A DNA stretch of 32,000 nt, taken from NCBI GenBank assembly GCA_963704755.1, contig OY969938.1, positions 690,001 to 722,000 of the forward strand. Direction: 5' to 3'. The notes below the pieces were generated by a model. It ran no database searches. It saw only the letters and a list, made by a program, of their open reading frames with translations, and was not told where the DNA came from. Source of the stretch: an uncultured Chloroflexia bacterium (GTDB lineage: Bacteria > Chloroflexota > Anaerolineae > Anaerolineales > Anaerolineaceae). The position numbers were made by a program, and so were the translations under genes. Below, piece after piece: positions 6,219-30,320 of this stretch (within the stretch, counting starts at the first letter, position 1; every line of letters starts with the position of its first letter).

Positions 6219-6247
6219 TCAAAGACCTCTTCGGGGATTGTTTTCAG

Positions 6248-7351: not shown

Positions 7352-7380
7352 GAGGACGAATCGATTACGGGATGGAGGAT

Positions 7381-10363: not shown

Positions 10364-10401
10364 GCAAACTTTCCTTATCAATTTTCAGGATAGGTGTATT
10401 T

Positions 10402-12117
10402 TTAACTTTGTGAGTTCGAGGTCGTACCGGTTGGGAAAAGATCGGAGCGTACCCATAAAATGATCGAGGTCTTTTCGCTGGGGGCCGTTTTAAACGCAAA
10501 CCAGCGCAGCCATTCTTTCGGCAGTAAGATCGACCAGTTCGGCGCTTCCTCCCAGGTAAAGTCCTGGCCGCTGTATTCCGCCGGTTGAGATAATCCTGGC
10601 TGGTCGGCCGTCACGATCATATCAGGTTTTGCATCTACCGGAAGGGTATCCGAGAAAATAGCATTGCTATCATCCCGCAATACCCAGCGTAAGGCCGGTG
10701 AATCCAACCCCTGGACGACAATCTCGATGGATTGGGGGTCGCTATTATTGCGGGTGCTGATATCCGTTACCGAACTTGTAAATAGATTTTCCTGGCCGAA
10801 AAGCGGATCTGCCCGCCAGATCTGTGCCGCCGGGTCATTTCCCAGGCCGGCCGCTGACCAGGTGGTCGAGAAGCAAAAGAAACTCAAGGCGGCCAAAATT
10901 CCCCAGGACAGGCCTTTCACGGTCATTGGGGTGCCCCACAGGATATAGACCAGAATCCCCGAAATCGCCAGGAGGACAATGGCGATGACCGCCCGGATCA
11001 GGCGTAATTGTATATCTGATTCTCCCTGCATGTTTCCGAAAATGTTCAGAAAGTCAAAAAATAGAAAAACGGTCAGCGCAGCCGCACAAGCTGCGTAGAT
11101 GATCGTTTCGCGGGATTGCTCAGGGTTGTATTCCAACAAATCCGCAAGCTGGCGCGCCGCCAATGCTAACAGCGGCGCCAGGCACCAGACCAGGTCGGCA
11201 GCCTGATGGGCCGGATACACCAGAACGACGACCAGCGCGACCATCCATCCGGTAAAAAGGGCTCGATCTACCAGGGATTCATTGCGGAAACCCACCACGG
11301 ATTGAATCACACCCAGTACCAGCCCAACAGGTTGGTATACGATCAAGGCGAGGATCAAATAAGCAAAAGAGATTCCCGAAGGGCTGAACCAGCCTTTCCA
11401 GAAATTCACAAGTCCCAATCCAGCCGCCGAAATGCCATCCGGGACCAGCATGCCCAGACTGCCGATCGCCAGGACGGTTCCGCCCAGCCATAACAATCCC
11501 TGGCGCCAATCGAAGGGCTGCATTTCCGGCCGATCTTCTCCATCTCTTCCGGTTCCTAACACAAAACGGACAATAAGCCAGGTGATCATGCAGATCAACA
11601 ATCCCAACCAGATAGAAGGTCCGCCCAACAGGGCCAGTCCCAGGCTGACGCCGGCCAGAGCCGTCTTGCGCTTCTGGAAAAAGGCGAACCCTGCCGCCAG
11701 GAAAAGCACACTGAGCATGCGTCCATCCGCGCTTCGCGATACCGCTACCAGGCCCGGATCGATAGCCAGCAGAAAAGCCAGAACCAGGGCAGCCTTTTGG
11801 CCAATTTTTTCGTGGAAGAGCAGCGGAACCAGGCACAGGAGGGTCCCTGCCAGGGCGGGGATCAGCCGGGCCAGAAAAGTCGAGGGACCCAATAGAAAGA
11901 ACAGGGCAGTCGTTCCAACCAGGTATAACGACTGGGCTCCCTGGTACAGGATGGGCTGATGCCGGACCAGCTCGAGCGCCTGCAGTGCCAGTTTCGCCTC
12001 GCTGTCGCCCAGCGGCAATTGTCCCAGCCGTATAAACCGGATCGCCAGCGCGATAAGGAATACCCCGGCATACAGACTCTGTTCGATAGTAATCTGTTTG
12101 TTCTTCATCCTGGTCAC
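10402..12117 (-). CDS. Polytopic GT-C-like / PMT-like membrane protein with C-terminal soluble domain (possible TIGR03663-type companion of YYY proteins)
   Basis: 571 aa with about 12-14 hydrophobic helices. The N-terminal first-loop motif RFIRLGQLPLGDSEAKLA resembles the R-x-x-L...D-E-A loop of PMT_2/ArnT-like enzymes. The ~130-aa hydrophilic C-terminus is probably extracytoplasmic. GTG 12117 overlaps the upstream TGA (GTGA); ATG 12108 is an alternative start. The family assignment is by eye and only moderately secure. Confidence 0.6.
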   Translation of the reverse strand: MTRMKNKQITIEQSLYAGVFLIALAIRFIRLGQLPLGDSEAKLALQALELVRHQPILYQGAQSLYLVGTTALFFLLGPSTFLARLIPALAGTLLCLVPLLFHEKIGQKAALVLAFLLAIDPGLVAVSRSADGRMLSVLFLAAGFAFFQKRKTALAGVSLGLALLGGPSIWLGLLICMITWLIVRFVLGTGRDGEDRPEMQPFDWRQGLLWLGGTVLAIGSLGMLVPDGISAAGLGLVNFWKGWFSPSGISFAYLILALIVYQPVGLVLGVIQSVVGFRNESLVDRALFTGWMVALVVVLVYPAHQAADLVWCLAPLLALAARQLADLLEYNPEQSRETIIYAACAAALTVFLFFDFLNIFGNMQGESDIQLRLIRAVIAIVLLAISGILVYILWGTPMTVKGLSWGILAALSFFCFSTTWSAAGLGNDPAAQIWRADPLFGQENLFTSSVTDISTRNNSDPQSIEIVVQGLDSPALRWVLRDDSNAIFSDTLPVDAKPDMIVTADQPGLSQPAEYSGQDFTWEEAPNWSILLPKEWLRWFAFKTAPSEKTSIILWVRSDLFPTGTTSNSQS

Positions 12118-14723
12118 TTCCCGGCTAAGGCATCGAAAGTAGTGTAATCCGGCGCTTCATAGATTGTCACACTGCTGTTGCCGAATACTGCCGTCAGATT
12201 TGCCTTGAATTTATCTTCGCTAACCCGGTAAGTCGTACGTTCGGTCGGGCCAACATAAATATAGCGTATATTGTAACGCTCGATAATCGTCTTGGTCTCT
12301 TCCCAATTGCTCGTCTGGTAAAGCGTCTGGATATCCGTCGGTCGCGAGCCAATCGCGGTGTTGTTCCCGCGCCATTCGCCTTCGTGACCGGCCCAGCCCA
12401 GCACAGATGGCTCTCCGCTAAAGGTGCTTACGCGGGCGTATTGTGATTGGTATTGCCCGCCGGTCGCCTCGATGACTACACCATAAGGCGCTTTAGCCAG
12501 CCAGTCGAATGCGGCCCATTCATCCGCGGAATAAAATGAGGAGGCGCCATTCAGGGTCAAATGGATCGAATCACCATTCGCTTCACTGATTTTCTCCGGC
12601 AGTTGTATGACCGGATACACAAAGGCCAGCACCAGCGTCACAGATAACAGCGCTTTAACCCACACGGCACGCCGGGTTTTCAATTCTTCCCAGACCACGG
12701 CAAAGCCAAACGCGCCGGCCAGGCTCCACAGAATCCAGGTCTGGAAATAGAACTTGAAGATGGTGTTCATGCGTGTGCCGAAGCCATCCAATAAGTAGAA
12801 ATATTCCGGAAAGAGGGTCAACCCCACGCCCAACAGGACCAGCAGCAAAACAAACCCATCCGGCGTGTTGTTCTTTTCGTCTGTGGCTGCCGGGTTCGCC
12901 GCTTCGCCCGCCTGCGGTATAAATCGCCGGCCGCGCAGTGAGAGCAAGCCCCAGGTCAGCGCCAGCATCACCAGCAAGGTCAGCCAGGTACCGGGACTTT
13001 CCAGCCGGCGCAGAAAGGATTGTTGAAATAATTCCTGCCCGCTGCCCGCCTGGATCTGGAAGAACTGCGCCGCCAGGCTGTTCAAACGGTCTCCCAGGTT
13101 GACGATCGAATTGTTCGACAAATCCATCATCGCCTGGGCCAGTGCGTCACCGGCTTCGATGCCCAACCCGGCCAGGATCATCAGCAGCCACAAGCCGCCC
13201 ACGACCAAAGCCGAAAAACCAAACGCCTTGCCCAGGGCCGGGCGCACGGCTTGTTTTCGCCAGCAATAGATCAGCCAGACGAGCACCGGCACCAGCAGCG
13301 GGGCAAACATTACCCAAAATTGGACCCCGCGTGTGGAGAAAATCATACTGGGCAGGAAACCACCCGCCTGAGAAGAGAAACCCAGGTAAAAAGGCAGGTA
13401 CAGCACTATTCCACAGATAGCCAGCAGCAGCGCCATCTCGACGAATTCGACCAGGCGTTTCCCGCTCCAGCCCAGCCGGCGGAAACGGGTCAAAGTGTAC
13501 ACGGCGCTGAACAGGCCCACATAAATCGGGAAGTCCCAGGTATTGATGAAGGACAGCCCGCCAAAAACGACCGCGCTCAGCCAGAATCCCGGGTCTCGGA
13601 ACCACTTACCCGGAGAAATACCCCCAAATCGTTGGGCCAACCCCCATAGATAAAGATTCAAGGCCAGGGCAACCGCCAGCAGGACAAATGGCATATCCAG
13701 GACGTGCGGGTGCATATCGGCCAGCAGGTATGAAAAGAAGGGAAACTCGTCGATGACCTCTTTATTGCCATCGATCACCTGCGTTTCGCCGTTGACCACC
13801 TGGGTCTGGCCATCGATCAAATTGCGGTCCTGAATGACCCGCGAGCCGGTCCACCAGGAATAATAGCGGTGCGGAATGAAAGTGTACGGCTGGGTGGGCG
13901 GGTCGCGCAGATCGCGGATATCCAACCAGGTCCAGAAGTTGGATGGCGTCTGCCCGGCAGCCGCATCGGTCCACAAGACGCCCTTCGAATGGAGCACGTC
14001 CAGGATGCCGGACATATTCCCGATCAGCAGGATCAACACCGGCGCCAGGAAGGCCCAACCACGTGCTTTTCTTTCCGCCTGGCCGTTCTCCGCGCGCCGT
14101 TTGAAGAACAGGATCAGCAAATTGTAAAGAATACCAAATGCGGCCAGTGCGGTCAGAGCGAACCACAGCGCAATCGCCACGTTGAAAGCCACCGTGGTGA
14201 CCGTGCCGGTCATTCGTACCAGCAGGCTGACGATGACGTAGCCAAAATAGTAATACGAGATCGAATACCCTGAAAGCCAGGGATCCTGCGGTGGGAAGGA
14301 CGGCGAGCGGATGATCGAATTCAGGAAAGCCATTTCCATCGGCTTTTCGGTGTTTAAAATCTCCGGGTTGGCCGCCCGCACCAGCGCCCAAAGCACGAAA
14401 GCGACCGCGAATAGGGCTTCCGCCGTCAAGATCAGGCGGCGATGCGCGCTGATCCAGGCCTTGAATTCCACCCAATTACCGCGCAAACTGGCCAGCGAAA
14501 CGACCGCCAGAATGGCAAGCCCGATCAAAACCCCGCCGGGGTTATTTTCCAGAATGCCCAGCGAGGCTAACAGCCAGAAGGCATAGCCCCACACCAGCAA
14601 GGCCAGCGGCTTGGCCAGGGTATAGCCCCGGTCAGGCAGGAATCGAAGAAAACGGTAGGCCAGCGGAAATGCCAACCATCCGGCAATCAAAACGACCAGG
14701 TACCAGCTTATTATTGCAATCAT
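12114..14723 (-). CDS. Chlor_Arch_YYY (DUF2298 / TIGR03662-type) polytopic membrane protein
   Basis: 869 aa and very hydrophobic. It carries the signature PWLSGYSISYYYFGYV preceded by NTEKPMEMAFLNSIIRS. A second conserved block is IDEFPFFSYLLADMHPH. The C-terminal soluble domain is GVVIEATGGQYQ...IRYIYVGPTER. It is a clear paralogue of the C-terminal half of the 1754-aa neighbour. Confidence 0.85.
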   Translation of the reverse strand: MIAIISWYLVVLIAGWLAFPLAYRFLRFLPDRGYTLAKPLALLVWGYAFWLLASLGILENNPGGVLIGLAILAVVSLASLRGNWVEFKAWISAHRRLILTAEALFAVAFVLWALVRAANPEILNTEKPMEMAFLNSIIRSPSFPPQDPWLSGYSISYYYFGYVIVSLLVRMTGTVTTVAFNVAIALWFALTALAAFGILYNLLILFFKRRAENGQAERKARGWAFLAPVLILLIGNMSGILDVLHSKGVLWTDAAAGQTPSNFWTWLDIRDLRDPPTQPYTFIPHRYYSWWTGSRVIQDRNLIDGQTQVVNGETQVIDGNKEVIDEFPFFSYLLADMHPHVLDMPFVLLAVALALNLYLWGLAQRFGGISPGKWFRDPGFWLSAVVFGGLSFINTWDFPIYVGLFSAVYTLTRFRRLGWSGKRLVEFVEMALLLAICGIVLYLPFYLGFSSQAGGFLPSMIFSTRGVQFWVMFAPLLVPVLVWLIYCWRKQAVRPALGKAFGFSALVVGGLWLLMILAGLGIEAGDALAQAMMDLSNNSIVNLGDRLNSLAAQFFQIQAGSGQELFQQSFLRRLESPGTWLTLLVMLALTWGLLSLRGRRFIPQAGEAANPAATDEKNNTPDGFVLLLVLLGVGLTLFPEYFYLLDGFGTRMNTIFKFYFQTWILWSLAGAFGFAVVWEELKTRRAVWVKALLSVTLVLAFVYPVIQLPEKISEANGDSIHLTLNGASSFYSADEWAAFDWLAKAPYGVVIEATGGQYQSQYARVSTFSGEPSVLGWAGHEGEWRGNNTAIGSRPTDIQTLYQTSNWEETKTIIERYNIRYIYVGPTERTTYRVSEDKFKANLTAVFGNSSVTIYEAPDYTTFDALAGK

Positions 14724-14732
14724 AAAATGGGA

Positions 14733-15101
14733 TTATTTCGCGTCGGGTTCTGGCCAGTGGAAGTCCCCATTTTCTTCGGCGGGGAAAGGCAGCACCCGCA
14801 GCACTGCCTGGGGATAAACCGGGCCATAAATATGAGGATAACTTCCACCGTTCGGGGCTAACTCGTAGCGGACTTCGACCGGCAGGGTTTGCGTATCGAT
14901 CTCCAGCAAGACCAGGCCGTTATTACCATGATAAAACGAATTGGCCGTATCGACAACCTGATTCCGGGTCGAGGCGTGAATGAACCCCTCGCTGTCGAGC
15001 GATGCAGCCCGGTATTCTCCATTATCCAATACCTGGCGCCAGGCCGTCTCTTCCGTGATGTGATAGATCAATCGTTCTCTGAACGCAGTCTCTTGCGTCA
15101 T
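14733..15101 (-). CDS. DUF952 family protein
   Basis: 122 aa. LIYHITEETAW...SLDSEGFIHASTRNQV...LVLLEID...YELAPNGGSYPHIYGPV matches the DUF952 pattern as I remember it (I-Y-H/K-I, GFIH-S/C-S, FPHLYGPL). The ATG overlaps the upstream TGA (ATGA at 15098-15101), and GAGGTG lies 5 nt upstream. Confidence 0.82.
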   Translation of the reverse strand: MTQETAFRERLIYHITEETAWRQVLDNGEYRAASLDSEGFIHASTRNQVVDTANSFYHGNNGLVLLEIDTQTLPVEVRYELAPNGGSYPHIYGPVYPQAVLRVLPFPAEENGDFHWPEPDAK

Positions 15102-18100
15102 TTCAGCACCTCATATATGGACGTATCGCCATCTTGAAAAACTTTCTTCCACAAATCTCCGTCGAGTTGGTCGAACTTGGACAACCCAATCGCGTTGTAA
15201 TAATCCCGCTCGAGCTGGCCAACGACGATGTAACCAACGTTGTATTTTTTCAGAAAAGCCTGGGCAATCTCACGGTTAGGAGTCTCATAAAAATTCTGCA
15301 CTTCGGCCATGCGCTCGCCCACCAGGTTGGAGGTGAGCACGGCCCGCTGTTGGCTCTCATGCACGTCCCATCCGATAATGGTCGGCAGGCCGGTGTAAAT
15401 TGAGAAGCGCGAACCCCAATTGTAGGTCCCGGTACTGGCCTCGACGATCACCGGGGAGCCCTGGACATTCTCCTGCATCCAGCGAATGCCGGCATAGTCT
15501 TCGCTCAAGCCCAACTGACCCCAGGCACTGCTGTACACCGAGGTTTGCATATAGGCCATTCCATCCAGGGTGTGCGGCGCTAAACTGCTCATCCGGTCAT
15601 CGATCTTGGATAAACCGGCCGTAAAAGGATACAGCAAAGCACAAGCCACCAATACCGAAACCGCCCCCGCCCACACCCGGCGCAGGTTCGGGCGCCAGAC
15701 TTTCATCACGGACGGGATCAGCCAGGTGAGACTCGCCGCAGCGCTGATGGCAAACAGCACCCAGGCCTGCAGATAGAACTTGAAGACGGTATTCATTCGC
15801 CCGGCGCCTTCGATGACAATCAGGTCAACCGCCAGGGTCAGGATGTCAGCGGTGCCGATCAGGAACAACACGAACCTTTTTGCATCCGGCATAGCCGGCC
15901 GCAAGAGCAGCACCAGGCACCAGACCGCCAGGGTAACCGTAAACCAGGCAATTCCGATCCCATAGATGGTCAGATAGATGGCAGCAACCAGGTAAGCCGC
16001 CAGACCGATCCCGAGCCAGTTGCGGTACGGGCGCAATTTATTCAAGGATGAAAGCGGCGTACTGGCCATCCAATCGACCGTCTCGCTCACCATCCAGGAG
16101 ATAATCACCGTCAGGAATACACCCCAATGGATTATATATGAGTCAAAGGGGGTCTTTTCGTCGTGGGCCAGGTCGATCTTGTTGTAGCCCAGTGCGTACC
16201 ATTGGGTAAACGGCCGGAAAAGCAAGCTGCCCACCAGGTAGAACAACGCCAGGACACCCAGGGTAATCAACAATTTGCGGGCCCATTCAGGCAGATCGGA
16301 TAGAAAACGCTGGGGCGGGCGGATGTAACGCATGCCACCATAGAAAATCGCCACCCCGCCAATGGCCAGGTAAGTAGGAAAATCCCAGGTATTGGTCGGG
16401 CGCAGCGAGAAAATAGCGAGCGCACCCACAAAAATAGTGGCCAGGAATGGCAGCCAGGCTTTCCCTTTTTCGTCCAGTGACCAGCGCCACTGCCGGAAGA
16501 CCAATCCCAGGGCCCAGGCCAGGGCCAGGATCGTCAACGGCAGGGCGTAGAAGTGCGCATGCGGATCGGCATACAGGAAGGTAAAGTTTGGAAATTCGGT
16601 GATGGCCGAGCCCGGCAGCGCCCGGCTGGGAATCCAGTACCAATCGCCGATCCCATAGGGCAGGCGTGCGCCTTGCAAAACGGCCACCAGGCCCTGGAAC
16701 ATCCAGGAAATCTGGGCGAACAGGCTGCCGCCGTCTATGGATCCGCCCGGCGCGGCCAGGCGCATCAACCCTTGCCAGATCATGCGGATGGTTCCCAGGT
16801 TGCCCAGGATGATGGTGCCCGCGGCGGCTGACAGCCCGCCCATCAAGGGCAGCTTATCTCGATGCAGCCAGGGTTCGGCCAGTTCCTGTTCCGCCGGCGT
16901 GCGTCGCAGGCCCTTGACCAGGTTCCAGCCCAGCGAGAACGCCCCAAAGGCAATCGTCGCCGCGATGGTCGGCATGAACAGGTTATAGGCAATACTGGGA
17001 ACGATGCCCAACCATTTGATCGGCACACCGACCAGCACAAAGCCGTAGTAATAGTAATTGATGTATGAACCGCTGAACCAGGGGTTATAAGGCGGAAAAG
17101 TTGTGCTTTTCAACACCGCGTTGAGGTAGGCAAAATCCATCGGCTTCTCGCCGCCAAAATACGGGTGCCAAAGATCCGGGTTGCCAAAACGCACCCCCAC
17201 AAAAACCAGGAACAGCACCAGCGAGAGGATTTCGACCGTCAGGAAATAACGCTTGCGGCTTTTGATCTCGTCCAGCAGTTCGCCGCGCTGCCAGAAAGCT
17301 AATCCCAGGTTGGCGACCAGCAGAATCAGGAACGCGATTGAAATCGTCAGCCGGCTGAAGCTGATCCCGTTCGAACCGGCGATCCACACCAGCCAGGAAA
17401 GCAGCAGCATGCCAAAAATCCGCGCCAATGGAAAGCCATGATCGGATAGGCCGTGCATGGCTATGCGCAGCAAAGGATAGCAAGCCCAGCCCATCAGCGT
17501 AATGACCAGGTACCAAAAGATCAAGGCCAGGCCGGGATAGCGGTTGAAGAGCGCATTGGTATCGAATATCTGTGACCAGGTCCCACCCGCCTGCTGTACC
17601 GCCAGACGGTCCTCCGGCAGGTCGAGATTGGCCGGATAGCTGGGCGCTTCGCCAGGAATAACGTGCACCACACTGGTCAAATCCACGCTGCCCAGGATGC
17701 TGGCGACCTTCTGAGAGTCGTAATCCGCCGTTTTCTTGAAGATCAGCACCTTGGGATGGTCGTAAACCGTGAAGGCTTCTTCGGCGAACTGGTCGTTGAT
17801 AGTGATCGGGCCAATATTCGGGTAGGATTCGAACACTTTAACCAGTTGGAAGCCCAGGTCGCCCTGGAACATGCCCGGTTCGGCCACCCGGTAGCACCAC
17901 AGCATATCCTGCTCGGCCGGGCAGCCTAACAGGTTGCGATAATAAGTGCTGGTTAACGGGTAGCGTTCCTCGACCCGTGTAGTCGTGCCCCACTGGCGGT
18001 TCGAAGAGATAAAAATGTAGTCGGCGCTGTCCATGGTCGTTTCAAAGCGCTGCAGCTTGGCCTGGTCATCGTCGTAATACATCTCGAAGTTCAGGTTGTT

Positions 18101-20362: not shown

Positions 20363-22596
20363 GGCCTGGTTGGTGGAACGTAATACTCCAAAAAGTCCTT
20401 CCCGGGCAGGTTGGCTTTATACAGATAGAGGGATCCATCCGGATAGAGGGTCTCCAAGTCCTGAACCGTTTCGCTATCCTGGGTATCCACAATGAATAAT
20501 TTTTCACGGGTGTCCGCCAGGGTGGTATCCAGGGCCGAGCGGTCGAGGGCAAAATCGCGCACACCGTAGCCGGCTTCGATCCCGACCAGGCGGGTGTCCA
20601 CCCAATAGGGGTAAGGGATCACGTAGGCCGTATCCGGGCTGCCGACTGAATCGGCAAAGCTGCGGATGACGTGGCCGAGATCCGAGGTGTTCCAGACTCC
20701 ACTCAGGAATTCCTGGCTGTATTGGCGGAAGACCAGGTCGAAATTCTGCGAGGCGGAAACGAACACCAGGCCCACCACCAGCACGCTGGGGACGATCACG
20801 CGCATTTTCCCGGCCAGGCGCTCTCTTAGGGCCGAATAGATACTTTCGATCCCGTAAGCCGCCAGGATAAACACAGGCACAATCGCAGCCCCGGTCCGGT
20901 TGAGCGACGGGTTTTCATCCGGGAAGGCCAGCGAAAGGATCGAGGGCAGCATAAGCAAAGGGATCGAAAGCAGCATAAACAGGTCGATCCAGTTGTGTTT
21001 ACGCAGGTAACGTACCACCACCAGCACCAACCCCAGGAAGAATAACGCCGCTCCGATCACGTCCAGGGCCGGCCGGTAGGGCACCGAATGGACCCAGATC
21101 TGGCCATCGTTATAAAAAAACATGACCAGCGAATTCCACAGGTTTTTCAGGAAGATCACCACAATCGAACCGGGATAAGCCGATTCGGTATTGGTGGTGC
21201 GGGTCAGCACCCGGTACCAGAACATCTCCGGGTTATCCAGCATGTAGCGGAACAACGGTAGAAAGATCGCCAGGGAGACGGAGGTCAGGATGACCAGCCC
21301 ACTGATGGTTTCCTTACGGTTACCCTGAGCAGCACGGTGCAGCAGATAAACGCCGATGCAAACGACCAGCACAAGCGGCATGATCCGCGCCGAGGTATAA
21401 CCGTGCAGCCCCATCCCCAGGGCGATGCCCGACCAGATGAAGTCGTTACGCTGGCGCCGGCGCAGCCCGCGGATGAGGTAATACAGGGCCGGGGCGGCGA
21501 ACAGCGGGTAAAGCGGAAAGCGCAGCCCAACCCGTGAAATCACGTTTGGCCAGTAGGCGATCCCGGCCAGCAAAAAGGCCAGCAAACCAACCCGGCGGTT
21601 GCCCAACTCTTTGCCCAGCAAGTAGATGTACGGCAGGGTGAAGAATCCGGCCAGCGTGGTCCCGATTTTCAGGGTCAGGAAAGAGATCTTGGTGCCAAAG
21701 ACAATCGCGACCAGGGCGCACATATACATCTGGATGGCTTCCCGGCCGGTGTTGCGCGGGAAGAAAATCGAAAACTTACCGGAAAGGACGTCGCTGATAT
21801 CCAGCAATTTCTCGGCGTGGTCGCTGAACATTTCGCCCGGCACCTGCGCCAGGTGATAGAAACGAAAAAATGCCACCACAGCCACGCACAAAACTACCAG
21901 CAGAGTCCAGCGGTCGATTTTAAGCGACCAGGAAGGCTTCCGGTAGAAAGAGCGCGCGCGGGCAACCAGCGATAGCCGGTTGTTTTCCGGCAGGTAAAAC
22001 CCATAGATGAGAAAAACCAGCCCGGACAGCCACAGCGTCAGGTTGAGGGCGGTAAAGCGGTTCCCACCAAACAGGCCGAACGACGCCAGCAGCAAGACGA
22101 CCGCGATATAGATCGGCATCCGTTTTACCGACAGGCCGAATGGTTTCGCCGAAAACTCGGGCAGGTCGTCGAAAGCCCATTCCCGCCGAACAATTCCAAG
22201 GACGGCAAAGGCCGCCGCCAGGATATACAGCAGTACCGCCGGGAGGATCTTCTGGTCGGGCGGCTCCATTTGCAATTGGGCCGCGATTGCCAGTACTAAG
22301 GCCAGCAGGATGGACCAGGGAAACCCCTTCCGGCCCTCGCGCTCGTCCGCCGGCAGGCTTACAGGCTCGATTTCCCCTTCATTCGCCGGCTCTTCCGGCA
22401 ACTCTTCTGAATTATCCAGCAAGGCTTCGGCCCAGGCCGGCCTTTCCATTTCAAGCGGCTGGTTGTGCAGTTCCGCCGGCGCTTCGTCCTGTGGCTCGCT
22501 GGGAATAACCGGTGGTTTACCCTTCCAGGGTGTCAGTAAGGCTTTTATGTAGTCGAGTACACTCGGTTCTTTCATAATAAATGAGTATTCCAGCAC
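20359..22596 (-). CDS. ArnT/PMT_2-like (GT-C fold) polytopic glycosyltransferase with acidic N-terminal extension
   Basis: 745 aa. FRFYHLAQVPGEMFSDHAEKLLD (first-loop acidic motif) and TTLAGFFTLPYIYLLGKELGNRRVGLLAFLLAGIAYWP are typical of PMT_2/ArnT-like proteins. About 13 helices and a ~120-aa soluble C-terminus. The start is uncertain: GTG 22596 from the track, or ATG 22575 (MKEPSVLDY). Neither has a clear SD. Confidence 0.72.
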   Translation of the reverse strand: MLEYSFIMKEPSVLDYIKALLTPWKGKPPVIPSEPQDEAPAELHNQPLEMERPAWAEALLDNSEELPEEPANEGEIEPVSLPADEREGRKGFPWSILLALVLAIAAQLQMEPPDQKILPAVLLYILAAAFAVLGIVRREWAFDDLPEFSAKPFGLSVKRMPIYIAVVLLLASFGLFGGNRFTALNLTLWLSGLVFLIYGFYLPENNRLSLVARARSFYRKPSWSLKIDRWTLLVVLCVAVVAFFRFYHLAQVPGEMFSDHAEKLLDISDVLSGKFSIFFPRNTGREAIQMYMCALVAIVFGTKISFLTLKIGTTLAGFFTLPYIYLLGKELGNRRVGLLAFLLAGIAYWPNVISRVGLRFPLYPLFAAPALYYLIRGLRRRQRNDFIWSGIALGMGLHGYTSARIMPLVLVVCIGVYLLHRAAQGNRKETISGLVILTSVSLAIFLPLFRYMLDNPEMFWYRVLTRTTNTESAYPGSIVVIFLKNLWNSLVMFFYNDGQIWVHSVPYRPALDVIGAALFFLGLVLVVVRYLRKHNWIDLFMLLSIPLLMLPSILSLAFPDENPSLNRTGAAIVPVFILAAYGIESIYSALRERLAGKMRVIVPSVLVVGLVFVSASQNFDLVFRQYSQEFLSGVWNTSDLGHVIRSFADSVGSPDTAYVIPYPYWVDTRLVGIEAGYGVRDFALDRSALDTTLADTREKLFIVDTQDSETVQDLETLYPDGSLYLYKANLPGKDFLEYYVPPTRP

Positions 22597-22617
22597 ATTC
22601 GAGTTTGCTGAAAATAT

Positions 22618-22629
22618 CCTTCGCGAAGG
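22618..22629. promoter_or_regulatory. Perfect 12-bp palindrome CCTTCGCGAAGG in the only sizeable gap of the glycan locus
   Basis: Read directly from the sequence. It lies 22 nt upstream of the GTG at 22596 and is followed on the minus strand by ATATTTTC. It could be an operator or a weak stem-loop. No family recognised. Confidence 0.3.
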
Positions 22630-22803
22630 TTGATTCCGGCCAGCTCAATGGTAATCGAATTCTTATTCCTCTGCCAACCTAAATCAGGGCTAAAACAATT
22701 CATCAGGCTCGTTGAAGATATTTCCGCATAGAGTTATTTGCAGTGCTTCACCGCGCAATCTACTCTATTCGGGGTTCTTACCCATTCAATTGAGCAATTA
22801 CAG

Positions 22804-23616
22804 CTAAGCAGCCTTGCGCCGGGTGATGTAGAAAGAATAAGAACCGTCCGGTACTTGCTTTGGCTCATCATAATAGGGCTGGCAAATCTGCCGGGTGAGG
22901 GCCAGGTTCCAGGGCACCGGCGCCAGGATCCACTTGCGGAATAAGAAGTGGCTGACGAGCGATGGCAGGCCAAAATAGTGGCCCCATTCCAGCACCGACA
23001 GCGCCTGGGGAGAAAAGTAATGCCACCAGTTTTCGATTTCGAAACCGGCTTTTTCCAGGCGAACCCGCCAGGTCTCGGGGTCGTCGCAGTGGTGGTGGCG
23101 CGAAATCCGGATGAAAAAATTACGGTAAGCCCGGGCCATTCCGTGCAAGCCAACCTTGTCCATCAGGCGGGCAAAAGACAGGTTGGGCAGGAAATTCTGG
23201 TTGGGCACACAGAAAATGAACGGCGCGCCAGGTTTGAGCACCCGGGCGACTTCCGCTAACACTGGGTCGAGTTCGGGAATATGCTCCAACACCGAATTGC
23301 TGACCGCGCTGCCGAAATACTGGCTGGGGAAAGGCAGCCGGTCCCCTGCTCCCTGGATCACCTCGTGGTAACCGCCTCGTTTTCCGGCTTGACGGACCGG
23401 TCCGGTCCATGGATCCAGGCCCACGTCCAACGGGTGATCGAAGGCAATGGTCGCAAAATGGCCATCGCCGCAGCCCAGGTCGAAGACCGGCCCAGGCAGC
23501 TCGATGTCGCGGTAAACTCGCGCTTCAACCGCGCGCAGTAGCCCGCGGAAATAGGGCAAATCCTTGATTTGTAGCCACAGGTAATCTTTTACCGGCGGAG
23601 TAGTTGTGGTTTGCAA
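22804..23616 (-). CDS. Class I SAM-dependent methyltransferase (Methyltransf_11-like)
   Basis: 270 aa. Motif I is VFDLGCGDGHF, followed by LPFPSQYFGSAVSNSVLEHI and LKPGAPFIF. The TTG start at 23616 has GGAGGG 7 nt upstream. Confidence 0.82.
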   Translation of the reverse strand: MQTTTTPPVKDYLWLQIKDLPYFRGLLRAVEARVYRDIELPGPVFDLGCGDGHFATIAFDHPLDVGLDPWTGPVRQAGKRGGYHEVIQGAGDRLPFPSQYFGSAVSNSVLEHIPELDPVLAEVARVLKPGAPFIFCVPNQNFLPNLSFARLMDKVGLHGMARAYRNFFIRISRHHHCDDPETWRVRLEKAGFEIENWWHYFSPQALSVLEWGHYFGLPSLVSHFLFRKWILAPVPWNLALTRQICQPYYDEPKQVPDGSYSFYITRRKAA

Positions 23617-23639
23617 ATAATATCCCTCCGAAATCCGGC

Positions 23640-24806
23640 TTAATGGGCAATCTGCTGCTGAATTTCGCTAAACAATTTTTCGTATTCGATGGCGATGTTA
23701 TCCGGCACGTAGGTCTGGCGGATCGGCTCTGGGTCGCGGATGAAAGCGGATCGGTTGGCAAAAATTTCCAGCAGCGAATTGGCCAGGGCATTTGAATCGC
23801 CGATCGGAATGATCTTACCCATCTGGTGGTTCAGTACCGGCTGGCGCACCCCGGGCAGATTCGAGGCAACACAGGGCGTTCCGTTCAACATGGCTTCGAT
23901 TTGCACCAACCCGAAGGCCTCGGTCGAATTTAGCGATGGCAGTACCAGTGCGTCCAGGTTGGGATAAAACCGGGCCATATCAGCCGGGTCCAGGTTGCCC
24001 AGGAAAATCCAGTTGCCGCTGACCTGGTAGCCGTTGATCTTGGGGACCAGGCGGGCTAAGTAAGCCTCTTCGCCAATAATATTCTGAAATGCACCGGCGA
24101 ACTGGACCTGCGCCTGCGGGTAAGCTTCCAGGATTTTCGGCAGTGCGTCCAGCAGTACTTCCACCCCTTTTTCGGTGGCAAATCGGGCGGCCATACCGAT
24201 GACCGGATGCTGGCCTTTCGGGTTCGTTTTGAGGCGAAAGGCCTGAACCAATTCTGGTTCAACTTCAGGCAGAACCACCGGCGGCGGAATAACCCTTAGT
24301 TTATCCAGGTAACGTTTCAAATAGCTCGAATTCTCGGCATAATCCCGCGTATACGTCACGATCCGGTGGGTAAAACGGGCAGCCAGCTCGTTCATTAGCA
24401 GAACGCCCTGGTTGGCGGCCCAACTGAGCAGCCCGCGCGGCATGCGCAGGTCACAATGATAAGTAATCACGGTCGGTTTGTGCTGCAGCCGCCCGCGTAA
24501 GGCTACCCCGGCCGCGTCGAACTGTGGCAGGTGAAGTTGAATCCAATCGTTTTCTTTGACCAGCCGGTTGGCGATGAAGCCAAACTGAGGCATGATCACG
24601 CCTTTGCTCAGGTGGATCAGAACCGGCACACGGATGATCCGCACACCATCGACCGTCTCTTCGCGCGGTAATTCAGGGTTGAATTGCGAAGTCATCACGG
24701 TGACTTCATGGCCCCTTTCGACCCAGGCTTTTGCCAATCGTTCCGCGTAAATTGTCAGGCCGGAAGTGTGCGGCCTGTAATAGGTAAGGACAATGAGAAT
24801 ACGCAT
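23640..24806 (-). CDS. GT4-family (GT-B fold) glycosyltransferase
   Basis: 388 aa. The N-terminus MRILIVLTYYRPHTSGLTIYAERLAKAWVERGHEVTVMT is typical of WcaI/WbuB-like GT4 enzymes. The E-x7-E motif is EAFGLVQIEAM. Confidence 0.88.
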   Translation of the reverse strand: MRILIVLTYYRPHTSGLTIYAERLAKAWVERGHEVTVMTSQFNPELPREETVDGVRIIRVPVLIHLSKGVIMPQFGFIANRLVKENDWIQLHLPQFDAAGVALRGRLQHKPTVITYHCDLRMPRGLLSWAANQGVLLMNELAARFTHRIVTYTRDYAENSSYLKRYLDKLRVIPPPVVLPEVEPELVQAFRLKTNPKGQHPVIGMAARFATEKGVEVLLDALPKILEAYPQAQVQFAGAFQNIIGEEAYLARLVPKINGYQVSGNWIFLGNLDPADMARFYPNLDALVLPSLNSTEAFGLVQIEAMLNGTPCVASNLPGVRQPVLNHQMGKIIPIGDSNALANSLLEIFANRSAFIRDPEPIRQTYVPDNIAIEYEKLFSEIQQQIAH

Positions 24807-24816
24807 ACCGCTACTC

Positions 24817-25842
24817 TTAGAACAGGCCCTGATTGGCTTTTACCCATTCGTACAAACGGGTTACACCTTCTTCGGCATTCACCTTCGGTGTCCAGCCCAG
24901 TACGCGTTCCGCCTTGCGAATATCGGAAACGTATACACGCTGGTCGCCCGGCCGCCAATCCGCAAAGTTGATCGAGATCTTCCTCCCGGCCAGCTTCTCC
25001 AGCATCGGGCCAAACTCGCTCCAGACCGACATGGTGAAGGCCGAGCCGCCGCCTACATTGAATACTTCTCCGGCTGTCTGGTTTGCATGGGCGATCGCTT
25101 TGTCGTAAGCGTTGCACAGGTCGTCGATGAACAACACATCGCGGACCTGTTTGCCATCGCCATAAATCGAAATAGGCACACCCTTCACCGCAGCGATGAT
25201 AAACCAGGCTACCCAGCCCTGGTCTTCGATGCCGAATTGGCGCAGCCCATAAATACAGCTCTGGCGTAATACGACCGATTTAAGCCCGTAAATGCGCGAA
25301 TAATCGCGCACGTACTGGTCGCCGCTGCCTTTCGAGCAGCCGTAAGGTGAATGGAAATCCAGCCCACGCTCTTCGGACATCCCGAAGGGAAAGTCTCGGT
25401 AAGAATAACGGGTCTCGTCTTCCACGATGGCGACATCTTCCATCCCGCCATAAACCTTATTGGTGGAAGAGTACAGAAAAACCGGTTCGCGGCCGGAAAG
25501 CCGGGCCGCTTCCAGGGTGTTAAATGTACCTTGTGCATTTATCTCGAAATCATTGCGCGGATCGGTTACCGAAGTGGTCACGGCGACCTGGGCGGCCAGG
25601 TGGACGATCACGTCGGCACCTTCAGCGGCCTGGCGAATTTTATCCGCATCGCGCACGTCACCAATGACCAGCTCGAACGCATCCGCACCATATTGAGCGC
25701 GTAACCATTCCAGGTTTCGTTTGGAGCCAGCTCTGGATAAATTATCAAAAACAATTACTTTTTCGTTGCGTTCCAATAACCTGGAAACGTAATTCGAGCC
25801 GATAAACCCCGCCCCCCCGGTAACAAGATATTGTGTCGGCAT
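24817..25842 (-). CDS. NAD-dependent sugar epimerase/dehydratase (extended SDR), CDP-paratose 2-epimerase (RfbE)-like
   Basis: 341 aa. The Rossmann motif is VTGGAGFIGSNY and the catalytic motif SPYGCSKGSGDQY (YxxxK). The blocks FDNLSRAGSKRNLEWL, SSTNKVYG, LDFHSPYGCSKG, RQFGIEDQGWVAWF, GDGKQVRDVLFIDD and GDQRVYVSDIRKA...WTPKV parallel my memory of Salmonella RfbE. GGGAGG lies 7 nt upstream of the ATG. Confidence 0.85.
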   Translation of the reverse strand: MPTQYLVTGGAGFIGSNYVSRLLERNEKVIVFDNLSRAGSKRNLEWLRAQYGADAFELVIGDVRDADKIRQAAEGADVIVHLAAQVAVTTSVTDPRNDFEINAQGTFNTLEAARLSGREPVFLYSSTNKVYGGMEDVAIVEDETRYSYRDFPFGMSEERGLDFHSPYGCSKGSGDQYVRDYSRIYGLKSVVLRQSCIYGLRQFGIEDQGWVAWFIIAAVKGVPISIYGDGKQVRDVLFIDDLCNAYDKAIAHANQTAGEVFNVGGGSAFTMSVWSEFGPMLEKLAGRKISINFADWRPGDQRVYVSDIRKAERVLGWTPKVNAEEGVTRLYEWVKANQGLF

Positions 25843-25869
25843 TCAAAGACCTCCCGAACAACTATGAAA

Positions 25870-26889
25870 TCAATTTAAACTATTGCTGTTCTTACGGACG
25901 CGTAAATCGCGGAACAGGTTCCCGATCGACTGCCCTTGCCTTACCAGGGCAATCATACCCAGGATGCCGGTAATAACAAACTGGATAAAATGTATAGTGA
26001 TTGCGCAGGCCAGGGCAGGCGTCTCTTCGATCCCCAGGATCGACAGCGCGCCTACTATGGCCGCCTCGAAAGTGCCCAACGCTGCCGGCGCAGAGGGGAT
26101 CGCAATTCCCATCGCCAGTACTGCATCGGTAAACATGCCCCACCAATAAGGCGCCGCCGGGGCAATCGCCAAAATAAACACGTAATATTCCGTCATGGCC
26201 ACGACCCATGAGAGTGCAATCGTGCCTAGAGCCAGCAAGAACTGGCACGGGTTTGCCAGGGTGCTGAAACCCTCCAAAAGCGAGTTGACCTGGGGTGCCA
26301 CGTACTTGCGCACAAAACCCCAATGGCTGCCCAGTTTATCGACCAACCCGCTGAAGAAAGACTGGTAGCGAGTCATCAGGAACAGCACCACCAGCATCGC
26401 GATGACGGCCAACAGGGTGATTACGGCCACCGAACGGGCCCAGGCCATTCCCAATGCCATCGGCAGGGTGATCAACATCATCGCAGCAGCCATCGCCAGG
26501 TCGAAAGACCGCTCGATGACGATCGTCGAAAGGATACCGACCGGGTTTAGCCCGGCCGCCTGGCCTAATAAAACCGCCCGCCCAAGCTCACCGGCCCGGA
26601 AAGGCAGCAAATTGTTGAGCAGATAACCCTGGTTGATGGCCCAGAACGATTGCATGACCGTTACCTTGTTGCCCAGGATGGTCCGCCAGGCCAGGCCGCG
26701 TATGTATAAAAACAAGAGGGTTAAGATCGCTACTGCGATAATATATATCAGCTTTATTTGCTCAATGGCCGGTCCTAATTCCTTCCAATTCACCGTACGA
26801 AAGACAAGGAACAATGCCACGGCCGAAATTATCACCCCAGGCAGCCAACCCTTCACCCGTTGCCAGAGATTTTTCCGTTCCGGATTCAA
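25870..26889 (-). CDS. Flippase-like membrane protein (UPF0104 / LPG_synthase_TM-type)
   Basis: 339 aa with about 8 TM helices. The basic N-terminus followed by [27 protein letters not shown], and [12 protein letters not shown], are typical of this family as I recall it. The TTG start at 26889 overlaps the lepA TGA (TTGA), and GGAGG lies 4 nt upstream inside the lepA 3' end. Confidence 0.7.
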
Positions 26890-28688
26890 TCTTCCTCCAA
26901 ACGCAGGATCGCCATGAAGGCTTCCTGAGGGATTTCTACATTACCAACCATTTTCATGCGGCGCTTACCGCGCTTCTGCTTTTCCAGCAGTTTTTTCTTG
27001 CGGCTGATATCGCCACCATAGCATTTGGCCAGCACATCTTTGCGCAGCGCTTTGACGTTTGCCCGCGAGATGATCCTGCCATCGGCCGAGGCCTGGATGG
27101 GCACATCGAATAACTGGCGTGGGATCAGGTCTTTCAGCTTGCTGACCAGCGCCTGGCCCTTATGGTAGGCTTCGTCCTTATGAACGATTGTCGCCAGCGC
27201 ATCGACCGGTTCGCCGCCCACCAGCACTTCCAGGCGGGTCAGGTTGCCGGGCCGGTACTCGGATAAATGATAATCCATGGAGGCATAACCGCGGGTGCGC
27301 GACTTGAGATCGTCGAAGAAGTCCACGATCAGCTCGGAGAGCGGGATGTCGAACGTCATCTGGACCCGGTTCGGCGCCGGGTACTCCTGCTCCACGAAAA
27401 CACCGCGGCGCGTACGCACCAGTTCCATCACCGTGCCGTAAAAATCGGTCGGGGTGATGATTTGCAGCACCATCCACGGTTCGCGGATCTCGGATATCTT
27501 CAATTCATCCGGCAGTTGCGAAGGCGAATCGATCCGCAGGACCTCTCCCTCCAGCATCACAATCTCGTATTCTACCGAAGGCGCCGTGACCACAATATCC
27601 AGATCGTACTCGCGCTCCAGCCGTTCCTGGATGATATCCATGTGGAACAACCCCAGGAAACCGCAGCGGAAGCCGAAATTCAAAGCCTGAGATTTTTCCG
27701 GCTGGTAGTCCAGGGCCGCATCGTTCAATTGCAGCTTTTCCAGGGCTTCTTTTAAATTAGCGTAATCTTCCCCTTCGACCGGGTAAATGCCGGCAAAGAC
27801 CATCGGCTTGGGATGGCGGAACCCGGGCAGCGGTTTATCGGCCGGGGCAGCCGTGGCGGTGATGGTATCCCCCACCCGGCACTCCTGGACCGTTTTCAAG
27901 CCGGTGGCGATATAGCCCACGTCGCCATCCAGCAACTCATTGACCGGGTGCATGATGGGGTCGAAATAGCCAATTTCGACCGGGCGCACGTCCGCCATGG
28001 TGGACATCATGCGCAGTTGTTCGTTCGCGCGGATACGCCCATCCATCACGCGGATATAGGCTACCACACCCTTATATGAATCGTAATGCGAATCGAAAAT
28101 TAAGGCCTGTAAAGGCAGGTCATCGGTACCTTTTGGCGGCGGTACCAGTTGAACGATCCTCTCCAGCACTTGATCGACATTCAAGCCCTCTTTGGCCGAA
28201 ATCGCAATTATGCTGGCGGGATCCACACCCAGCAAATTATGAATGTCCTCGGCCACCTCAATTGGGCGGGCCGAGGGCAAATCGATCTTATTGATCACCG
28301 GGATAATCACCAGGTCCGCGTCCAGGGCCAGGTACAGGTTGGCCAGGGTCTGGGCCTCGATCCCCTGGGTGGCATCCACTACCAGGATCGCCCCTTCGCA
28401 GGCCAGTAAAGCCCGGCTGACCTCGTAATTGAAGTCCACGTGGCCCGGGGTATCGATCAAATTCAGTTCGTATTGATTGCCGTCTTTTGCAACATAGCTC
28501 ATCCGTACCGCTGAAGCCTTGATCGTCACCCCTTTCTCGCGCTCAAGGTCCATCGTATCCAACACCTGGTCCATCATATCGCGGTCGGAAATCGTTCCGG
28601 TTAACTGCAACATGCGGTCAGCCAGGGTTGATTTGCCGTGATCAATGTGGGCGATAATACAAAAGTTACGAATATGATCTGTTGACAT
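26886..28688 (-). CDS. lepA: Translation elongation factor 4 (LepA)
   Basis: 600 aa. [23 protein letters not shown] (G1), DTPGHVDF (G3), NKIDLP (G4), and the LepA-specific C-terminus ...[23 protein letters not shown]. Confidence 0.97.
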
Positions 28689-30146: not shown

Positions 30147-30231
30147 TCAGACCTCCAGGATATATACGTTTTGTATGGATTGGGCCAGGAAAGGATCAGG
30201 ACCCCCATCAATACCGGTTGCAATTTCTCGA

Positions 30232-30294
30232 AAAAAAGAAAGGTTTTCGGTTGGATTCTCTGGCGGCTACACCGCCAGAGAATCCAACCGAAAA
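30232..30294 (-). terminator. Intrinsic-terminator-like element: perfect 23-bp stem, 5-nt loop, U-rich tail (minus strand)
   Basis: TTTTCGGTTGGATTCTCTGGCGG (30244-30266) pairs with CCGCCAGAGAATCCAACCGAAAA (30272-30294); the loop is CTACA. The minus-strand continuation is CCTTTCTTTTTTTCG. No minus-strand ORF lies upstream of it, and the cpaE-like start is 85 nt downstream. Confidence 0.6.
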
Positions 30295-30320
30295 GTTCCA
30301 GCCTCGAATATACGCTATGT

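Follow-up and report, generated by a model that had tools for sequence, protein, structure and literature searches.

Glycosylation by GT-C-type glycosyltransferases outside the cytoplasm is known from several systems. Mycobacteria build lipomannan and lipoarabinomannan (LM/LAM) and arabinogalactan with AftA, AftB/C/D, EmbA/B/C and the series that leads from PimA to PimE, MptA and MptB. AftA takes arabinose from a polyprenyl phosphate. It has extra N-terminal helices, carries its catalytic D128, together with R132, on the first long loop outside the membrane, uses R415 for the phosphate of the donor and has a C-terminal domain of the alpha/beta type. ArnT (GT83), the undecaprenyl-phosphate-L-Ara4N:lipid A transferase, and ALG12, ALG9, STT3 and Pmt4 likewise use donors linked to polyprenyl or dolichyl phosphate. 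In Haloarcula hispanica, the TIGR03663 protein Agl23 is the partner of the GT2 enzyme Agl22 and acts in N- and O-glycan pathways; in proteoliposomes the purified protein is reported to translocate M5GN2-PP-lipid, and Agl23 is also reported to rescue yeast rft1-delta. Three-component systems (GtrA/GtrB/Gtr-GT-C; CsbB/GtcA/YfhO; UbiA-type PPPRS/MATE/GT136) combine a lipid-phosphate-sugar synthase that works inside the cell with a flippase and an outer GT-C, and Kelly et al. described a UbiA-type synthase, flippase and GT-C for pentofuranoses, which they compared with mycobacterial arabinan synthesis. In the GpgSDF system, a GT4 enzyme and a UPF0104 protein make and probably flip a glycosylated phospholipid; according to a preprint, Chloroflexi and Actinobacteria have fusions of GT-B enzymes with members of the PplT family, to which UPF0104 proteins belong, and Makarova et al. 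predicted a flippase role for UPF0104 proteins whose genes share a conserved neighbourhood in archaea with PMT/STT3-like and AglD-like (GT2) genes. Here we compare with these systems a block of nine genes rich in YYY (DUF2298/TIGR03662) and GT-C proteins, found in a 32,000-nucleotide (nt) stretch of DNA from an uncultured Chloroflexia bacterium of the Anaerolineaceae (the window; assembly GCA_963704755.1, contig OY969938.1, positions 690,001 to 722,000). We lean towards reading the nine genes as one conserved cell-envelope glycan assembly locus of monoderm Anaerolineae, laid out as a two-compartment line. The locus is a variant of known extracytoplasmic GT-C glycosylation, not a new kind of system.

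The block comprises nine co-oriented minus-strand open reading frames (ORFs; 10402–26889) between cmk (9671–10381) and lepA (26886–28688). Its lepA-side half encodes a PplT membrane protein, a short-chain dehydrogenase/reductase (SDR), a GT4 transferase and an S-adenosylmethionine (SAM) methyltransferase; the other half encodes a 745-aa GT-C, a 1,754-aa GT-C+YYY fusion (the giant), a DUF952 protein, an 869-aa YYY protein and a 571-aa Agl23-like protein. As in the mycobacterial machinery, several different GT-Cs are encoded in tandem, a PimA-like GT4 would act in the cytoplasm, beta-sandwich inserts resemble carbohydrate-binding modules (CBMs) and UbiA genes lie beside YYY genes in relatives; AftA and YYY further share extra N-terminal helices and an alpha/beta C-terminal periplasmic domain, and YYY has a candidate catalytic acid on the loop that would correspond to the one bearing the catalytic Asp of AftA. 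In contrast to that machinery, the locus proteins have no sequence similarity to GT85, GT53, GT87 or GT89 and are not GT85/Emb family members, the putative catalytic residue of YYY is a Glu in a TEKPME motif where AftA uses an Asp, and the hosts are Chloroflexota and non-mycolate lineages. No DprE1/DprE2 was seen in the window or among the genes listed for the distant loci that were examined, and UbiA, which the window lacks, occurs only in the loci of distant relatives.

ArnT, ALG9, ALG12, STT3 and Pmt4 provide the nearest structures to the 571-aa protein, at 9–15% identity (14% to ArnT), and the 745-aa protein passes the PMT_2 model, whereas no locus protein comes near the cut-off of the GT83, GT22, GT66 or GT39 family hidden Markov models (HMMs). 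To our knowledge, a monoderm Chloroflexota bacterium has no lipid A. Like the Agl22/Agl23 pair, true TIGR03663 proteins in relatives of the locus stand beside a small GT2, or are fused with it, near YYY; unlike it, the window has no adjacent GT2, and the fold and motifs of the 571-aa protein suggest a transferase whereas Agl23 has been reported as a flippase. Compared with the three-component systems, the locus has five GT-C modules in place of one, PplT in place of a GtrA, SMR or MATE flippase and an added arm of GT4, epimerase and methyltransferase; of the triad itself the window holds the GT-Cs and a flippase candidate, while the donor synthase is missing. With GpgSDF (Pseudomonas aeruginosa GlcN-phosphatidylglycerol), HexSDF and MprF, the locus shares a GT4 or other synthase for a membrane lipid accompanied by a UPF0104/PplT protein; it differs from GpgSDF in having no deacetylase and in linking the GT4/PplT pair to GT-Cs.

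YYY proteins have a predicted AftA-like GT-C fold

The original prediction for this DNA, made by a model from the sequence alone, had placed DUF2298/TIGR03662 in ORF 12114–14723 and in the C-terminal half of the giant, and both regions score far above the family cut-offs: the 869-aa protein matches PF10060 with 367 bits (cut-off 27.8) and TIGR03662 with 490 bits (cut-off 300.25), and residues 945–1752 of the giant match TIGR03662 with 507 bits and PF10060 with 351 bits. The motif YYYxG, part of the TIGR03662 description, appears as S-Y157-Y158-Y159-F-G161, invariant in the 46 YYY sequences of the 869-aa family, and as NYYYYGF in the fusion. The family is large, with 9,775 representatives at 50% identity at E<=1e-3 and 4,720 at E<=1e-30. 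The prediction had also stated that the family has no known function and that no defined substrate or product is known for such a locus, and in the literature searched we found no experimental characterisation of DUF2298/TIGR03662. The Y_Y_Y domain of the literature was set aside as an unrelated namesake.

An AlphaFold2 model of the 869-aa protein, built from the 46-sequence alignment, reached a pLDDT of 88.4 and a pTM of 0.92. Its sole significant full-length Foldseek matches were two chains of AftA (8if8; E 4.8e-5, probability 1.0, TM 0.56 on the target), and its C-terminal globular domain resembled the C-terminal domain of AglB, an oligosaccharyltransferase of Archaea. Judged from this confident model, the 869-aa YYY protein has an AftA-like GT-C fold. 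In the conserved T-E126-K127-P128-M129-E130 segment the core E126-K127-P128-M129 is invariant, as are D336, H338, H340, D397, R651, N653 and K657. Loops 24–38 and 80–98 of the protein are rich in Arg/Lys and flank the TEKPME loop, which by the positive-inside rule would therefore lie outside.

PMT-like modules and conserved acidic loops

PMT_2 had been predicted both in the 745-aa protein and in the N-terminal third of the giant. In the former it was found (PF13231, residues 291–447, 34.6 bits against a cut-off of 26.1), within a GT-C core that starts at about residue 230, after an acidic N-terminal tail and extra transmembrane helices; TIGR03663 gave no match to this protein. The giant's N-terminus, in contrast, did not match Pfam PMT_2 and gave only a weak 25-bit STT3-family match at residues 94–280. 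We nevertheless take this N-terminal module (F-Nterm) as GT-C/PMT because of profile–profile and orthologue evidence: it aligned with the 745-aa family by hhalign on family alignments (95.6%, E 1.3e-8), stand-alone F-Nterm orthologues occur in three distant loci described below (L086, L089 and L090), with the L089 protein above the Pfam PMT cut-off, and the fused relatives P0363 and L085 match PMT/PMT_2. Alignment of the 745-aa family and F-Nterm with the 571-aa family was weaker (75%). Family alignments were used here because pairwise BLASTP among the GT-C modules returned marginal matches only. None of the four polytopic proteins had a meaningful match when searched by sequence against the PDB, where fold comparison alone succeeded. 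A match between F-Nterm and the giant's middle region was discarded as an artefact of overlapping extraction. Fold models were made for the 869-aa and 571-aa proteins; the 745-aa protein and F-Nterm were assigned by sequence profiles.

Scanned alone, the middle of the giant (residues ~471–944) matched two beta-sandwich families, DUF4082 (29.3 bits, cut-off 28.4) and PHR (24.7 bits, cut-off 23.6), and the second half of this region accompanies the stand-alone F-Nterm-type GT-Cs in L086, L089 and L090. The region is presumably extracytoplasmic, and we propose that it binds carbohydrate.

In all five GT-C modules an in-to-out helix leads into the first long loop, and conserved acidic residues stand where this loop begins. 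Besides the TEKPME segment of YYY, these are H52-P53-D54-E55 in F-Nterm, invariant together with R39 and R123 in 59 orthologues; S258-D259-H260-A261-E262-K263 in the 745-aa protein, directly after the first transmembrane helix of the core; and D38-x-E40, with R27 and R84, in the 571-aa protein.

A divergent Agl23 homologue

A PMT-like companion of the TIGR03663 family had been expected next to YYY. A full-length homologue is indeed present as the 571-aa protein, which scores below the family cut-off (50.5 bits against a curated 126.25), and the family itself is by now characterised in part, through Agl23 of H. hispanica, and is named 'flippase activity-associated protein Agl23' in NCBIfam. The 571-aa family aligned by hhalign with 60 true TIGR03663 members at 99.9% (E 1e-31) over columns 8–571 against 21–552; given this full-length homology and the sub-cut-off score, we treat the protein as a divergent sister group and not as a curated member. 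Pfam gave no match. Its AlphaFold model (pLDDT 92.9, pTM 0.91) matched ArnT 5f15 best in Foldseek (E 1.9e-8, TM ~0.53), followed by ALG12, ALG9, STT3 and Pmt4, with probability 1.0. The comparison with GT-C structures that the original prediction had suggested thus led to AftA for the 869-aa protein and to the ArnT/ALG12/ALG9/STT3/Pmt4 group for the 571-aa protein, and on these matches of two confident models we assign both proteins to GT-C folds.

The 571-aa protein evolves faster than its neighbours (27–37% identity over Anaerolineales, against 45–60%), and apart from a few Trp its only invariant residues are R27, E40 and R84.

One explanation that these data bear on is that the 571-aa protein, and possibly the YYY proteins, are not catalytic and serve as translocators or scramblases of lipid-linked sugars, or as scaffolds. 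It draws on the translocation activity and rft1-delta rescue reported for H. hispanica Agl23, on the full-length homology of the 571-aa family to TIGR03663 and on the missing sequence link between YYY and proven transferases, and the fast evolution of the 571-aa protein may signal relaxed catalytic constraint. We consider it very improbable: both models carry the GT-C fold of bona fide transferases, invariant acids and arginines occupy the canonical positions, PplT already gives the locus a flippase-like protein of its own, and the GT2–TIGR03663 fusions seen in relatives are equally compatible with a donor synthase joined to its consumer.

Genes of a proposed cytoplasmic arm

HMM matches were obtained for all four proteins that the original prediction had listed for the lepA-side half, namely a flippase-like UPF0104 protein, an RfbE-like SDR, a GT4 transferase and a SAM methyltransferase. 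PplT matches PF03706 LPG_synthase_TM with 142 bits and the 'flippase-like' TIGR00374 with 59 bits (cut-off 43), and is a proposed translocator of a lipid-linked intermediate. The SDR carries GGAGFIG near its N-terminus (GxxGxxG) and Y167-G-C-S-K171 (YxxxK). In a PDB sequence search it was by far closest to the CDP-tyvelose 2-epimerases TaTyvE (9rl0, E 1.7e-104) and 1orr (5e-88), other SDRs following at 1e-41 or weaker, so that the 'RfbE-like' label was apt. TaTyvE interconverts CDP-glucose and CDP-mannose, and we propose that this CDP-tyvelose 2-epimerase-like SDR acts as a nucleoside diphosphate (NDP)-hexose C2 epimerase.

The GT4 protein matches Glycos_transf_1 (95 bits) and Glyco_transf_4 (65 bits) in Pfam, and the E-x7-E motif noted earlier is EAFGLVQIE at residues 296–304. 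A PDB search matched its whole length to PimA, the phosphatidylinositol mannosyltransferase (64 bits), and it scores 35.8 bits against the GlcNAc-phosphatidylglycerol synthase model (cut-off 480); we propose a cytoplasmic priming transferase with a membrane lipid as its acceptor. The methyltransferase matches Methyltransf_11/23/25 in Pfam, and neither a PDB sequence search nor NCBIfam gave an informative characterised relative; O-methylation of a glycan or lipid is its proposed role.

These assignments also bear on whether the GT-C/YYY proteins might glycosylate proteins (S-layer, pilins or other surface proteins) in the manner of PMT, TMTC or AglB, with the GT4, SDR and methyltransferase preparing the glycan. 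Pointing that way are the PMT_2/PMT homology of the 745-aa and F-Nterm-type proteins, the AglB-like C-terminal domain of YYY, STT3 and Pmt4 among the matches of the 571-aa protein, the role of Agl23 in haloarchaeal N- and O-glycan pathways, protein-interaction modules in relatives (TPR on giant YYYs, NHL propellers on TIGR03663) and a TadZ-like pilus-assembly gene just past lepA. The top structural matches, however, are AftA, with a glycan acceptor, and ArnT, with a lipid acceptor, and not oligosaccharyltransferases or PMTs; five different GT-C modules fit a polymer of many linkages better than en-bloc or single-sugar transfer; the NCBIfam AglB/PglB families gave no match near cut-off; and the GT4 resembles PimA, whose acceptor is a lipid, while PplT relatives translocate modified glycerophospholipids. 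We therefore hold protein glycosylation to be unlikely and keep to assembly of an envelope glycan.

Conservation and cross-lineage linkage

A scan of genome contigs recovered 80 species-level loci, all from Anaerolineales, in which genes were scored by tblastn and presence was counted over adequately covered loci. The order lepA, PplT, SDR, GT4, (methyltransferase), (745), giant, (DUF952), YYY869, 571, cmk, with the genes in brackets variably present, is kept nearly everywhere. The YYY part of the giant was found in 63/63 loci and its N-terminal part in 55/56, the 571-aa gene in 66/69, the 745-aa gene in 47/52, GT4 in 47/50, the methyltransferase in 39/52 and cmk in 61/64; in five loci that lack the methyltransferase and 745-aa genes, GT4 is the immediate neighbour of the giant gene. 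The nearest named relatives of the 869-aa protein come from Bellilinea, Longilinea and Anaerolineaceae, and the cultured organisms Bellilinea caldifistulae and Ornatilinea apprima carry the same locus. The DUF952 gene looks like an optional passenger or accessory: it is present in only 43/75 loci, and tblastn did not detect it in the distant ones described below. Its product matches PF06108 with 96 bits, and its only PDB relative, CC0527, is of unknown function.

More distant loci were reached through weak matches to the 571-aa protein (P0212–P0214), a search seeded with the true TIGR03663 domain and giant YYY proteins, and were also scored by tblastn; the distant YYY loci compared include none that is demonstrably archaeal. 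In L089 (72% GC), about 11 kb hold GT2, TIGR03663, PplT, methyltransferase, GT4 (36% identity), F-Nterm-like (32%), 745-like (33%, E 1e-73), GT2, UbiA and YYY genes. L087 has GT4 (47%, E 2e-113), SDR (54%, E 3e-119), methyltransferase, two YYY, an FAD amine-oxidase-like gene, a GT2–TIGR03663 fusion and UbiA; L086 has two YYY, F-Nterm-like, FAD oxidase, GT2, TIGR03663, PplT, Wzy_C and methyltransferase genes, its Methyltransf_11-family gene adjoining those for LPG_synthase_TM and Wzy_C; and L090 has two YYY, F-Nterm-like, FAD oxidase, GT2, TIGR03663, PplT and UbiA. In L092 (61% GC) lepA is followed by PMT-like, PplT, GT4 (37%) and methyltransferase genes, a 2434-aa PMT+YYY+YYY protein, YYY, a 571-like gene and TIGR03663-NHL. 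L085 and L093 hold the YYY/GT-C core, with GT4, SDR and PplT not nearby, and L091 only YYY, FAD oxidase, GT2 and TIGR03663. PplT homologues were detected by tblastn in L086, L089, L090 and L092, and methyltransferase homologues in L089 and L092.

Gene orders and orientations are reshuffled in L086, L087, L089, L090 and L092, and the high-GC loci L086, L087, L089 and L090 lie among unrelated genes, while L092 keeps lepA. Synteny beyond close relatives, on which the original prediction depended, was found in these five loci, where GT4, SDR, methyltransferase or PplT genes stand beside YYY/PMT-like genes. Since the same families re-cluster, reshuffled, split or fused, in distant loci, this cross-lineage linkage of the two halves is the decisive evidence against their chance juxtaposition, which is unlikely. 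Two YYY subtypes, the F-Nterm-, 745- and Agl23-type GT-Cs, GT4, methyltransferase and PplT make up a core set, and SDR, GT2, UbiA, FAD oxidase, DUF952 and Wzy_C a variable one; the triad of synthase, flippase candidate and GT-C is complete in L086, L089 and L090. Fusions join PMT and YYY (as in the window), PMT and two YYY modules with or without TPR repeats, and a GT2 of the ArnC/PpgS/Dol-P-hexose-synthase type with TIGR03663.

The same comparisons speak to the idea that two independent neighbours, a module for glycolipid synthesis and flipping (SDR, GT4 and PplT, with or without the methyltransferase) and a separate GT-C/YYY cluster, merely share an inherited gene order. A 207-nt gap with one promoter-like match inside separates the halves; cmk and lepA are as syntenic within the order as the locus genes; L085, L093 and L091 lack nearby GT4, SDR and PplT; and the GT4 and UPF0104 proteins of Pseudomonas aeruginosa form a self-contained glycolipid system. 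Yet GT4, methyltransferase and PplT re-associate with YYY/PMT-like genes in the five reshuffled loci, GT4 abuts the giant in five Anaerolineales loci, and the promoter-like match lies within chance expectation (9 such matches were found in the scan, 10.9 expected). Two unrelated modules therefore seem quite improbable to us, and we retain the single locus.

Three proteins of 2,400–2,700 aa (P0363, P0383 and P0416; L092 10001–17305 and L093 10001–18142) combine a PMT-like module with two YYY modules, some with C-terminal TPR, and are in effect the window's giant merged with a second YYY module. In the high-GC relatives, a gene like those for FAD amine oxidase or phytoene desaturase, a small GT2 and TIGR03663 recur side by side (L086 7781–11632; L087 8685–13224; L090 7748–11692; L091 7924–11623); the trio is co-directional with overlapping starts and stops in L086, L087 and L091, and UbiA lies beside YYY or TIGR03663. 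This context suggests a dedicated step of lipid-carrier or lipid-sugar modification that is absent from the window.

A proposed two-compartment pathway

From the domain identities, GT-C folds, conserved residues, cross-lineage linkage and fusions we infer an order of steps, with donors, acceptor and product, as follows. Inside the cell, the TyvE-like SDR would epimerise an NDP-hexose at C2, as in the conversion of NDP-glucose to NDP-mannose; the PimA-like GT4 would load the epimerised sugar on a glycerolipid or on a polyprenyl-phosphate-linked primer; and the SAM methyltransferase would modify the glycan or lipid. PplT would then move the lipid-linked intermediate to the outer leaflet. Outside, the five GT-C modules in four proteins (the 745-aa protein, the giant's F-Nterm and YYY modules, YYY869 and the 571-aa protein) would extend and branch the glycan from polyprenyl-phosphate-monosaccharide donors, each forming a different linkage in the way of the mycobacterial AftA/B/C/D, EmbA/B/C and PimE/MptA/B enzymes, with the donor synthase (a GT2, possibly a UbiA-type enzyme) encoded outside the window. 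The product would most likely be a lipoglycan or a wall-attached heteropolysaccharide, made by a route comparable to that of LM/LAM and arabinogalactan.

Several observations count against this scheme. Pfam, NCBIfam and the annotation of the flanks show no GT2 or UbiA synthase, phosphoglycosyl transferase, Wzx/Wzy or ABC exporter, or ligase in the window; with the synthase, exporter and ligase genes not there, the pathway as drawn is incomplete in it. The 'parts list' of a lipid-linked glycan pathway that had been proposed is hence supported by HMMs, structure and synteny as far as it goes, and falls short by the GT2 polyprenyl-phosphate-sugar synthase. The AftA match of the 869-aa protein has a TM of only 0.41 on the query, against 0.56 on the target, with a high root-mean-square deviation, and neither hhalign nor the PDB sequence search relates YYY to other GT-Cs, so that it is the structure that places YYY among them. 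The conserved acids are candidate catalytic residues by position and conservation, and Agl23, the one characterised relative of the 571-aa protein, was reported as a flippase and not as a transferase. The taxonomic placement of the distant loci, whose GC contents run from 61 to 72%, is tentative, as only sister proteins carry a label (Actinomycetota or Chloroflexota). Within the order, synteny alone is no evidence of function, because the housekeeping genes cmk and lepA are equally syntenic. The 207-nt gap, finally, may divide two transcription units.

A bolder proposal is that YYY is a new, very large GT-C family that, with PMT- and Agl23-like partners, polymerises an undescribed arabinan- or LAM-like envelope lipoglycan from polyprenyl-phosphate sugars in Chloroflexota, deep-branching high-GC bacteria and some Archaea. 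The UbiA and FAD-oxidase genes beside YYY in relatives, together with AftA as the nearest fold, make pentofuranose donors possible; we consider the proposal conceivable, if doubtful.

Filamentous bacteria of this kind abound in activated sludge, digesters and sediments, and little is known of the envelope chemistry of Anaerolineae and of most Chloroflexota; with over one third of the window given to GT-C enzymes, the conserved 16-kb locus points to a major undescribed surface polymer. DUF2298 in a GT-C fold near that of AftA, with candidate residues and partners, offers a testable enzyme family that might become a new one in CAZy. Whether Agl23/TIGR03663 proteins are flippases or transferases is a further question on which the locus bears, and its two cultured carriers make tests feasible.

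Locus layout and neighbouring sequences

The gene coordinates, lengths and order in the original prediction were exact; its count of ten genes between lepA and cmk should read nine (4+5). The gaps of 27, 10, 23, 207 and 9 nt that it gave follow from the ORF coordinates (Table 1), and its total of 3,939 aa for the four polytopic proteins was recomputed (11,817 nt). Its three 4-nt overlaps are present in the sequence, as ATGA at 20362–20359 and 15101–15098 and GTGA at 12117–12114. The third is contingent on the choice of start, because the 571-aa ORF may not begin at its GTG: as called in public data, the protein has 568 aa and starts at an ATG 9 nt downstream.

Table 1. Genes and modules of the proposed glycan locus in the window, in the direction of transcription
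Feature	Position	Strand	Length
PplT / LPG_synthase_TM (UPF0104, MprF-flippase-like) membrane protein	25870–26889	minus	339 aa
Extended SDR, CDP-tyvelose 2-epimerase-like (TyvE/RfbE-like)	24817–25842	minus	341 aa
GT4 (GT-B) glycosyltransferase	23640–24806	minus	388 aa
Class I SAM methyltransferase	22804–23616	minus	270 aa
Intergenic gap between the two halves	22597–22803	minus	207 nt
PMT_2-type GT-C	20359–22596	minus	745 aa
Giant GT-C+YYY fusion	15098–20362	minus	1754 aa
Giant: PMT-like GT-C module (F-Nterm), residues 1–~470	18953–20362	minus	
Giant: soluble beta-sandwich region, residues ~471–944	17531–18952	minus	
Giant: first YYY (DUF2298/TIGR03662) module, residues 945–1754	15098–17530	minus	
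DUF952 protein	14733–15101	minus	122 aa
Stand-alone YYY (DUF2298/TIGR03662) protein	12114–14723	minus	869 aa
ArnT-like GT-C, divergent TIGR03663/Agl23 homologue	10402–12117	minus	571 aa (or 568 aa)

On the lepA side, a TTGA at 26889–26886 joins the stop of lepA with TTG, the earliest start that the PplT ORF could use, and with this start there is no gap. This overlap, together with the position of lepA directly upstream in many Anaerolineales loci and in L092, makes read-through possible, and the glycan locus may be transcribed through from lepA. The 207-nt gap contains no credible ORF, Rfam match or significant RNA structure (fold z = -1.4), and its one sigma-70-like match (22677–22648) is within chance expectation. 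Because the scan for terminators (30 found, 23.8 expected), like that for promoters, stayed at chance level, neither is informative on operon structure. A scan of the locus for tRNAs and Rfam families gave no matches.

GC content is even over the block. An origin as a phage, plasmid or defence island was set aside in view of the even composition, a chromosomal context that is syntenic in ~80 species and the absence of mobile-element genes. Within the 745-aa gene, a two-copy 24-nt tandem repeat (20930–20978, 84% match) is probably trivial.

Just past lepA lies the TadZ-like response-regulator/ParA gene (28896–30146), and upstream of it about 1 kb of non-coding DNA (30147–31174) of low GC content (43% for 30001–31000). 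This contains, on the minus strand, a perfect 24-bp hairpin followed by a U-run (30225–30310; minimum free energy -53.9 kcal/mol, z = -8.8), which looks like a strong intrinsic terminator; against Rfam it gave nothing above threshold and only sub-threshold miRNA-like matches. Two minus-strand ORFs of 110 and 139 aa (31175–31927) have odd composition and no Pfam match, and are possibly spurious; a gene on the plus strand runs off the end of the window. Beyond cmk, positions 1542–9609 hold a C69-family peptidase gene and three sensor histidine kinase genes, encoding a 1102-aa dCache-HAMP-GAF-PAS kinase, a 367-aa receiver–histidine kinase hybrid and a 742-aa multi-PAS kinase; the 1102-aa kinase gene is syntenic over many Anaerolineales loci, and the peptidase gene less often.

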